From the IMG/VR virus record IMGVR_UViG_3300027805_000012, positions 4,421 through 68,420 of that record: DNA of 64,000 nt. The stretch is one strand, 5' to 3'. This DNA is from a virus. Position numbers and translations under genes: made by a program. Positions 50,924-51,053 of this stretch are shown here, piece after piece. Below the pieces are notes generated by a model. That model had not been told where the DNA came from. It did not search any database and saw only the letters and a list, made by a program, of their open reading frames with translations. The first letter of the stretch is position 1. Every line of letters starts with the position of its first letter.

Positions 50924-51053
50924 GCCGATGTAGCTCAATGGTAGAGCGCCTAAAACATCGTTCGCACTCTTTGGTGAGTGTTCAACCGCTAGCGAATGGT
51001 TATCGCCTCTTAAGCGGGAGGGTGGCTGGTTCGAATCCGGTCCGTCGGCGCCA
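50924..51053 (+). tRNA. tRNA-Lys(CTT) with ~53-nt structured insertion between D arm and anticodon arm
   Basis: Canonical acceptor, D and T arms and loop ctCTTaa; insert ~50949-51001. Confidence 0.75.

Follow-up and report, generated by a model that had tools for sequence, protein, structure and literature searches.

What does a gene with all the parts of a transfer RNA (tRNA) do with a structured stretch of extra nucleotides (nt) in the middle of its cloverleaf? This question is raised by positions 50924-51053 of the window, a stretch of 64,000 nt that covers positions 4,421 to 68,420 of the IMG/VR phage record IMGVR_UViG_3300027805_000012 (69.8 kilobases, kb; CheckV completeness 19%). The original prediction, made from the sequence alone, described this 130-nt gene on the plus strand as a tRNA-Lys(CUU) with a 53-nt insert and left two fates for the insert, an arm kept in the mature RNA or an intron removed with the help of a ligase. 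Judged from conserved sequence and gene context, the product is probably a tRNA-shaped, un-permuted Y RNA, in which a full tRNA body carries a retained side arm for docking Ro60, and it would be the partner of the Ro60 protein encoded by the same phage. The feature is real and under selection, not an artefact, and an intron is unlikely.

The insert interrupts the anticodon stem of a complete tRNA body

The gene is part of a dense tRNA array (49647-52467), with tRNA-Phe 7 nt upstream and the next tRNA-like gene 7 nt downstream. ARAGORN did not call it, neither with nor without the intron option. The Rfam tRNA model (RF00005) aligns with 50924-51049 at 27.3 bits (gathering score 29) and leaves 66 nt unaligned after position 27. 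With its anticodon arm interrupted and its score below gathering, the gene is not a canonical tRNA gene, and its cloverleaf is complete once the arm is conceptually removed. According to the Rfam alignment, the 5' tRNA part (50924-50950, plus strand) consists of the 5' strand of the acceptor (50924-50930), U8 and A9, the D arm (50933-50947; GCUC-AAUGGUA-GAGC, with the stem GCUC/GAGC), G26, and C27 and C28 as the first two nucleotides of the anticodon stem. The rest of the anticodon arm follows at 51004-51018 (plus strand) with C29 G30 C31, the loop CUCUUAA, and GCGGG at tRNA positions 39-43; the anticodon CUU occupies 51009-51011. The 3' tRNA part (51019-51053, plus strand) holds the variable loop, the T arm, the 3' strand of the acceptor (51043-51049), G73, and a CCA end that is encoded in the gene at 51051-51053. 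The acceptor is intact over 7 base pairs (bp; GCCGAUG/CGUCGGC). The T arm has a 6-bp stem, common to the related loci L099 and L063, and the loop UUCGAAU.

A systematic parse places the insert best at 50951-51003, between nt 28 and 29 in the 5' strand of the anticodon stem, with an ambiguity of about 1 nt at its boundary. Its removal leaves a perfect 5-bp stem (CC-CGC/GCGGG) and the 7-nt loop CUCUUAA. The earlier description of a tRNA-Lys(CUU) with a 53-nt insert thus stands. The proposed site between the D and anticodon arms (~50949-51001) does not, because the insert sits inside the anticodon stem. A group I or II intron had been excluded on account of the small size of the insert, and we agree: at 53 nt, it matched no Rfam intron model even at E values up to 10. 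Ribozymes (hammerhead, pistol, twister, HDV-like) were also considered and rejected, with no Rfam match at E up to 10 and their core motifs absent. The same applies to a miniature inverted-repeat transposable element (MITE) or target-site duplication: CGCC flanks the insert here, and the relatives show no flanking repeat.

Inserts at the same site define a family with compensatory changes

Decay would leave an insert unconserved among relatives. We found the reverse, a conserved and covarying insert; it is neither decay nor a known type of intron, and it defines a family. A loose pattern (D arm, a gap of 55-85 nt, T loop), first run on viral contigs, recovered tRNAs with inserts at the same 28/29 site and with similar ends. 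A sharper pattern (AGAGC-N4-AA ... GGUUA-N24-25-GGUUCRA) gave 59 loci. These contain 28 distinct tRNA-type units, after removal of two false matches in tRNA context, and the remainder are chance matches in coding DNA. In 24 of the 28 units the arm could be parsed to the 28/29 site, and excising 48-58 nt there leaves a 5-bp stem whose 7-nt loop has U33 and R37. The strict pattern occurs in exactly one copy per record in 29 phage records, and a reversed control pattern gave no match, which places the feature well above chance. The covariance model R1 collected at least 38 full-length units at 58 bits or more from phage contigs, including second and third tandem copies missed by the pattern. A few units found only by R1 carry the arm at 30/31 or 31/32. 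Two variants, L073:6159-6288 and L011:1693-1817, have a Ro-type arm after nt 30 or at 31/32, neighbor a standard 28/29 unit, and lie beside Ro60; the insertion point is thus not absolutely fixed. Other routes to relatives gave little. DNA searches with the locus among cultured phage genomes, for both close and remote similarity, returned only the tRNA-like portions and no insert, the relatives found via the RNA ligase (L002-L005) held no tRNAs, and two early exact patterns gave either no match or a chance tRNA pair.

The units share a common order of parts. An A-rich linker is followed by a helix of about 8 bp (P1), 7-9 nt of internal loop with YUU at their end, and a hairpin of 4-6 bp (P2) with G-C or A-U as its closing pair and GNRA, UUCG, or CUUG as a frequent cap. 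After P2 come C-G-A/C-N-N, the 3' strand of P1 ending in GG, UUAY, and the last 3 bp of the anticodon stem. Pairing was evaluated on two alignments. In A4, which is based on the covariance model and, being fitted to it, inflates pair counts, 91.7% of the cells pair, compared to 64.6% in shuffles and 37-54% with the partners slid; for P1 the value is 88.6%, with changes on both sides at 6 of the 8 pairs. In the sequence-only alignment A2, P1 still pairs in 71%. Of the 38 units, 22 contain a P2 motif made up of U, a stem of 4 bp or more with an R-Y closing pair, and CG, compared to 0.5 expected in shuffles, and the closing pair of this motif covaries, with UUG..C alternating with UUA..U.

Furthermore, both halves of the split anticodon stem covary across the 38 units: C27-G43 occurs in 30, the pair 28-42 covaries, and so do 29-41, 30-40, and 31-39. 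The D stem GCUC/GAGC is invariant in all 38 members and the T stem is paired in 100%, an invariance of the D and T arms that the search pattern in part imposes. That the D stem stays the same across different "anticodons" indicates common descent of the whole RNA, not repeated invasion of different tRNAs. Compensating changes are also visible between the gene under study and its close orthologs L099, L063, and L110, where one P1 pair changes from U-A to C-G, one P2 pair from A-U to G-C, U.G, or C-G, and the exon stem from CGC/GCG to CCA/UGG and CUC/GAG. These changes rule out decay.

The family extends beyond the phages. With one genome per prokaryote species, 80 bacterial loci were examined, and at least 56 of them are of the tRNA type, mainly from Nostoc and other cyanobacteria, Sorangium, Polyangium, and other Myxococcota. 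In Nostoc punctiforme, every unit pairs its own acceptor strands, ends in ACCA, and caps P2 with GCAA. Tandem sets of two to four units are found at many phage and bacterial loci (L073:6159-6741, L098:7807-9682, L143:6774-7257 of Nostoc punctiforme, and L187 of Polyangium). The cultured gut phage crAss001 holds an unannotated 146-nt tRNA-framed unit (MH675552, 96451-96596, minus strand; L238:1501-1646) whose D arm is followed by a large insert. It reaches 46 bits with R1, as a more divergent member, and is located directly downstream of an open reading frame (ORF) with a TROVE domain, on the same strand.

The arm resembles the Ro60-binding module of Y RNAs

The arm is most likely the Ro60-binding module of YrlA-type Y RNAs, here in un-permuted tRNA order. 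This reading is based on its conserved letters, which match the Ro60-binding site of Y RNAs. In the copy of the window (all parts on the plus strand), the arm begins with the 5' linker UAAAACA (50951-50957), which is A-rich, unpaired, and equivalent to what follows the D arm in YrlA; both A2 and A4 show it conserved as (U)AAA(A)N. The 5' strand of P1, UCGUUCGC (50958-50965), pairs with the 3' strand GCGAAUGG (50992-50999), whose terminal GG is invariant in the family. This helix is also seen in the minimum-free-energy fold of the RNA, and it confirms the outer helix that had been predicted earlier (cgttcgc/gcgaatg), which is real and covaries. Between the strands of P1, J1/2 (ACUCUUU, 50966-50972) forms the 5' side of an internal loop; its family consensus ends in YUU and can be compared with ..AaAcUuG.. 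in the Rfam YrlA consensus. P2 (GGUGA-GUGU-UCAAC, 50973-50986) has a G-C closing pair and a 4-nt loop cap. This is the conserved inner hairpin, and the cactc/gagtg hairpin proposed instead is not kept in the relatives. We regard P2 as the putative Ro60-contact helix; its loop cap takes the place of the 5' and 3' termini of YrlA. It is followed by J2/1 (CGCUA, 50987-50991), in the family C-G-A/C, where a bulged C precedes two nucleotides that pair, as G.U and A-U, with UU in J1/2. The 3' linker UUAU (51000-51003) equals YUAY, a conserved word of YrlA. No variation in GGUUA is seen in A2, a word that the search pattern itself demanded.

The YrlA/YrlB motif GNCGAAN0-1G has been likened to the GGUCCGA contacted by Xenopus laevis Ro60, and YUAY is conserved as well (PMC4201824, Chen et al. 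2014). J2/1 of the family matches both the YrlA motif and the metazoan GGUC-C-GA. Words found after P2 include G-C-CGAA-G and G-U-CGAU-G, with GG-UUAY at the end of P1, and the Rfam YrlA consensus shows the like blocks ..CgaAUGC.. and ..gaaCUAc... The Rfam YrlA model scores 16.3 bits at 50924-51053, compared to a gathering score of 69, and none of the tested family loci reached the gathering score.

The RNA gene occurs together with Ro60

Y RNAs are encoded together with a Ro60 (TROVE) gene, and such a gene is present in the window. The proposed protein partner is encoded at 61679-63289 on the plus strand (536 amino acids, aa) and matches Pfam TROVE (5.7e-25), vWA_Ro60 (6.1e-48), and PHROG 850 (4.5e-70). 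Matches to vWA_Ro60 were found in 23 of the 29 carrier phage records, 21 of them above the Pfam cut-off. Among 29 control records, which had been fetched by the same scans as the carriers, there was one, weak and below the cut-off (Fisher 2e-9). Restricted to near-complete carriers (at least 90% complete), Ro60 is present in 11 of 12. Twelve of the 23 Ro60-bearing records have the RNA gene no more than about 2 kb from the vWA match and on the same strand, so that it directly adjoins the Ro60 ORF. In the others, mostly phages of 100-500 kb and including that of the window, the two are 11-100 kb apart and the RNA is located in a tRNA array. L099, the nearest relative of our locus, has the same gene order of ligase, RNA, and then Ro60 about 11 kb on. 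A comparable association was observed in bacteria: among the matches listed, Ro60 falls within the 8-kb locus for 40 of 56 tRNA-type loci and for none of 24 chance loci, and it usually begins 50-150 nt past the last unit.

Based on the homology to YrlA and the gene context, the following sequence of events can be proposed. The RNA would be transcribed within the tRNA array and cut out as its neighbors are: RNase P would cleave the 5' end and the 3' end would be trimmed back to CCA, with the arm kept. The ring of the phage Ro60 (61679-63289) is predicted to bind the P2 helix and the strand with the bulged C-G-A/C. The tRNA body would then serve as a second, effector-facing module, as has been proposed for the tRNA-like domain of YrlA. 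We infer the presence of the arm in the mature RNA, the binding of Ro60, and the recruitment by the tRNA body.

Retained arm or intron

By its sequence, the RNA does not appear to be a normal decoder. The loop reads CUCUUAA in the window and in L099, CUAUCUC in L063, and CUACUAA in L110. The "anticodons" of the family include CUU, UUU, GUU, UGG, GCA, UGU, GUA, UCU, CAU, UUG, UGA, AUG, AUU, and ACU; A34 occurs in several members, and the canonical loop is gone altogether from some units. Moreover, a canonical tRNA-Lys(CUU) is already encoded in the array at 49901-49975. The anticodon drift among orthologs, the A34, and the normal tRNA-Lys(CUU) argue against decoding, and together with the units that lack a canonical loop they also argue against an intron. 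Such an intron would depend on proteins: two endonucleolytic cuts would release the insert, and a ligase (the Rnl-type enzyme of 44696-45328, RtcB, or a host ligase) would seal the ends, with the opposite strand of the anticodon stem as template for the join, to give a 77-nt tRNA-Lys(CUU) decoding AAG. This explanation accounts well for the 24 of 28 pattern-found members in which removal restores the 5-bp stem and the canonical loop, and for the covarying exon pairs. The phage indeed encodes an RNA ligase, as originally predicted (a PF09414 match 5.6 kb upstream of the gene), and RtcB occurs in three carrier genomes. A nick within a duplex is a good substrate for Rnl2-type ligases and would suit such an enzyme here.

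However, the ligases co-occur poorly with the RNA, with PF09414 in 5 and RtcB in 2 of the 12 near-complete carriers compared to 11 for Ro60. The EndA-type splicing endonuclease (PF01974) was not found in the genomes G000, G005 (98% complete), G006, and G007, while control genomes gave matches. By inspection, the junction is three-way, with linkers of 5-7 nt and 4 nt, and not a bulge-helix-bulge (BHB). An intron recognized by its structure needs no conserved internal loop or motif, the invariant D stem across "anticodons" argues against repeated invasion, and the homologous module stays in the mature, Rsr-bound YrlA (PMC4201824). Contigs assembled from the freshwater metatranscriptomes X1 and X2, whose libraries may contain DNA, are identical to parts of the tRNA array at low depth and are unbroken through neighboring inserted genes; among the pieces listed, none joined 50950 to 51004, and they are uninformative on splicing. 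By homology to YrlA we therefore favor retention of the arm over splicing with reasonable confidence, and we consider an intron improbable. Of the two fates offered originally, retention fits the evidence, with the identity of the arm as a Ro60 module having been missed, and the ligase-dependent intron is weakened on four counts.

Several observations weigh against a Y RNA, in addition to the inflated pair counts and the partly imposed invariances mentioned above. The Ro60 gene of the window is not adjacent to the RNA gene but 10.6 kb away. Six of the 29 carrier records have no Ro60 match, one of them a 100%-complete genome of 92 kb. An intron, too, would require what most members show, namely that removal restores the 5-bp stem and the canonical 7-nt loop exactly. 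Finally, the putative Ro60 recognition element of the window copy reads ..CAAC-CGCUA.., with CGC in place of CGA, as in its closest kin, and its P2 contains one G.A mismatch, which makes Ro60 binding less certain for this copy than for the family. The missing A of CGA and the carriers without Ro60 could also be accommodated by a conserved, structured module with another function, such as a site for a different protein or a signal for stabilization or processing. The link to Ro60 would then reflect shared lineage or a neighborhood of RNA repair genes. We give this explanation little weight, as the association spans unrelated hosts and sizes (phages of 55 kb to 500 kb, cyanobacteria, and myxobacteria), it includes cases of immediate same-strand adjacency, and the conserved letters are those defined for recognition by Rsr/Ro60. 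In addition, most Ro60-negative records are small fragments or belong to a divergent GGUUACU subtype with weaker TROVE-like matches. A decaying tRNA gene with a junk insertion would explain why ARAGORN skips the gene, why its Rfam score stays just under the gathering threshold, and why it has an extra T-stem pair and a mismatch in P2. It is contradicted by compensatory changes in every helix, also between close orthologs, by exactly one strict copy per record, and by the intact acceptor and CCA, so that a pseudogene is very hard to credit. Taken together, a Y RNA with a retained Ro60-docking arm remains the probable identity of 50924-51053.

Neighboring genes and other unusual tRNAs

The RNA ligase of the window (44696-45328, 210 aa) consists of the nucleotidyltransferase domain of PF09414 only. 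Directly upstream of Ro60, at 59462-60504, a NUDIX hydrolase and an HNH endonuclease are encoded, which, together with the ligase, gives the region the flavor of an RNA repair neighborhood. A homing-endonuclease-like ORF (49038-49661; phrog_314, 8.7e-20) ends 15 nt inside tRNA-Trp (49647-49721), the first tRNA of the array.

The array contains further unusual tRNA-like genes. At 51262-51361, a tRNA frame (Rfam tRNA, 39.7 bits) has its anticodon arm replaced by the stem CCUCC/GGAGG, which encloses UCAU-GGU-GAAGG-ACC-AAAUCGCU. This interior resembles the J1/2-P2-J2/1 segment of 50924-51053 (..UUUGGUGA..CAACCGCUA..), and by this likeness the gene may encode a second Y-like RNA without an anticodon hairpin; its R1 score of 40.5 bits is no better than that of ordinary tRNAs. 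The motif GGUGA..CAAA of four odd tRNA-like genes (A, F, G, and B, with F being 50924-51053) was tried as a marker of the family and rejected, as only B somewhat resembles the inner module of F. Two more tRNA-framed genes (50237-50335 and 51061-51170) have good acceptor and T arms and an anticodon domain that is replaced or extended; the latter contains ..CCAUCGAUUC.., in which CGAU recalls the GUCGAU found in many members of the family. At 51454-51539, a UUU (Lys) anticodon is found on an 86-nt body with a long variable arm, whose best Rfam match is tRNA-Sec (33.7 bits, below gathering). The array thus holds three RNAs with Lys anticodons: the copy at 49901, 50924-51053, and 51454-51539.

Other insert-bearing phage tRNAs form classes of their own (L010:258-376, L012:4536-4667, and L013:2789-2904; further such genes at L016:1514-1632 and L017:10371-10494). 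One class shares (A/C)AGCAAUUYUUU, and another is a tRNA with a GUG anticodon and an insert of 30-45 nt after position 37. No vWA_Ro60 match was found in the four searchable records of this set, L016 being outside the search.

Implications

YrlA resembles a circularly permuted tRNA, and dimeric tRNA transcripts have been proposed as its origin in a structural study (10.1101/312249, Wang et al. 2018). Two adjacent tandem units, as observed in Nostoc, Polyangium, and several phages, show exactly the permuted YrlA layout when read from P2 loop to P2 loop, which provides a concrete route for this model. It is conceivable, if rather doubtful at present, that the un-permuted RNA represents the ancestral form of YrlA, a true tRNA that is processed by RNase P, ends in CCA, may be chargeable, and has a docking arm for Ro60 as a permanent part. 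Such an RNA would offer a natural intermediate for the origin of tRNA-like Y RNAs from tRNAs.

If the proposed identity holds, the anticodon hairpin and the CCA end could bring Ro60 to synthetases, EF-Tu, the ribosome, or repair ligases; alternatively, the RNA could be a Ro60-guarded bait shown to host anticodon nucleases. This poses a question that the permuted YrlA does not: can a CCA-ended, anticodon-bearing RNA bound to Ro60 be charged, or meet the translation or tRNA repair machinery? The family would also account for "broken" or "intron-containing" tRNA genes in phage arrays, cyanobacteria, and myxobacteria, which are skipped by tRNA finders and prone to be labeled pseudogenes. Few YrlA RNAs have been reported from cyanobacteria and delta-proteobacteria, in a search that discarded candidates overlapping tandem tRNA genes (PMC4201824), and the units described here are candidate Y RNAs for both groups. 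Cultured systems with such units are Nostoc punctiforme, Sorangium, and the gut phage crAss001.

Comparison with known systems

Group I introns also interrupt tRNA genes in bacteria and phages, but they exceed 200 nt, interrupt the anticodon loop, and contain a catalytic core. The present insert has 53 nt and is located in the stem, so that it belongs to neither group I nor group II. Archaeal tRNA introns at non-canonical positions, cut by EndA at a BHB and sealed by RtcB, are similar in being short stem inserts whose removal restores the cloverleaf. They differ from the three-way junction seen here, which has A-rich and UUAY linkers, a conserved interior, and a bacterial or phage context, with neither a BHB nor EndA.

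The Y RNAs of metazoans and Deinococcus share the Ro site. It is given as GGUC-C-GA/UU-GACC (PMC4201824), a helix in which G.U and A-U pairs flank a bulged C. Both of its strands are recognizable in the present family, in which the closing pair covaries. Unlike the RNAs described here, these Y RNAs lack a complete tRNA body and begin and end at the Ro helix.

The closest relative is YrlA (Y RNA-like A, RF02553), known from bacteria and actinobacteriophages, which is likewise a partner RNA encoded with Ro60/Rsr. It shares the tRNA-like D arm, T arm, and acceptor helix, including the same conserved D stem GCUC/GAGC (10.1101/312249), and a Ro-binding module with GNCGA(A), a helix, an internal loop, and YUAY. 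YrlA of Mycobacterium smegmatis is cleaved by RNase P and receives CCA, and the mature YrlA RNAs studied retain the Ro-binding module (PMC4201824). The two-piece form bound to Ro60 likewise has a tRNA-like domain whose open acceptor ends in CCA, but it consists of 82 nt and 65 nt from a cut permuted precursor, whereas the present RNA is a single chain in tRNA order.

The relation between the two layouts can be followed in the YrlA-type RNAs upstream of Ro60 in Mycobacterium phage Rizal (L116:2168-2443) and Gordonia phage BearBQ (L114:2216-2442), which contain the parts of the present family in permuted order. They begin with a strand of the Ro helix, GCCGAG or GCCGGAG, a P1 strand, UUAC (Rizal) or UUAU (BearBQ) as the equivalent of the 3' linker, a hairpin with a 3-bp stem and a 7-nt loop, and two pairs. 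The variable loop, the T arm, a closed acceptor hairpin, the D arm, G-C-U, (U)AAAC, a P1 strand, a loop, and the other strand of the Ro helix follow; the equivalents of the 5' linker in actinophage YrlA read UAAACG and AAACC. As in our family, the nucleotides after the D arm pair with those after the small hairpin (C27-G43, U28-A42). This hairpin, the stem-loop "V" of the literature, corresponds to a split anticodon arm when the two extra pairs are included, and its loops AUUGCAA and CUGCUAA resemble anticodon loops.

We found no description of an un-permuted tRNA/Y RNA layout in the literature searched, and a complete, CCA-ended tRNA doubling as a Y RNA is most likely a wiring not described for published bacterial Y RNAs. 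YrlA is circularly permuted, ends in the Ro-binding helix, and has a loop-closed acceptor without a free CCA, and Salmonella YrlA lacks the anticodon loop (10.1101/312249). The present family, in contrast, is not permuted: it ends at the acceptor with an encoded CCA, caps the Ro helix by a loop, and keeps the full anticodon hairpin.

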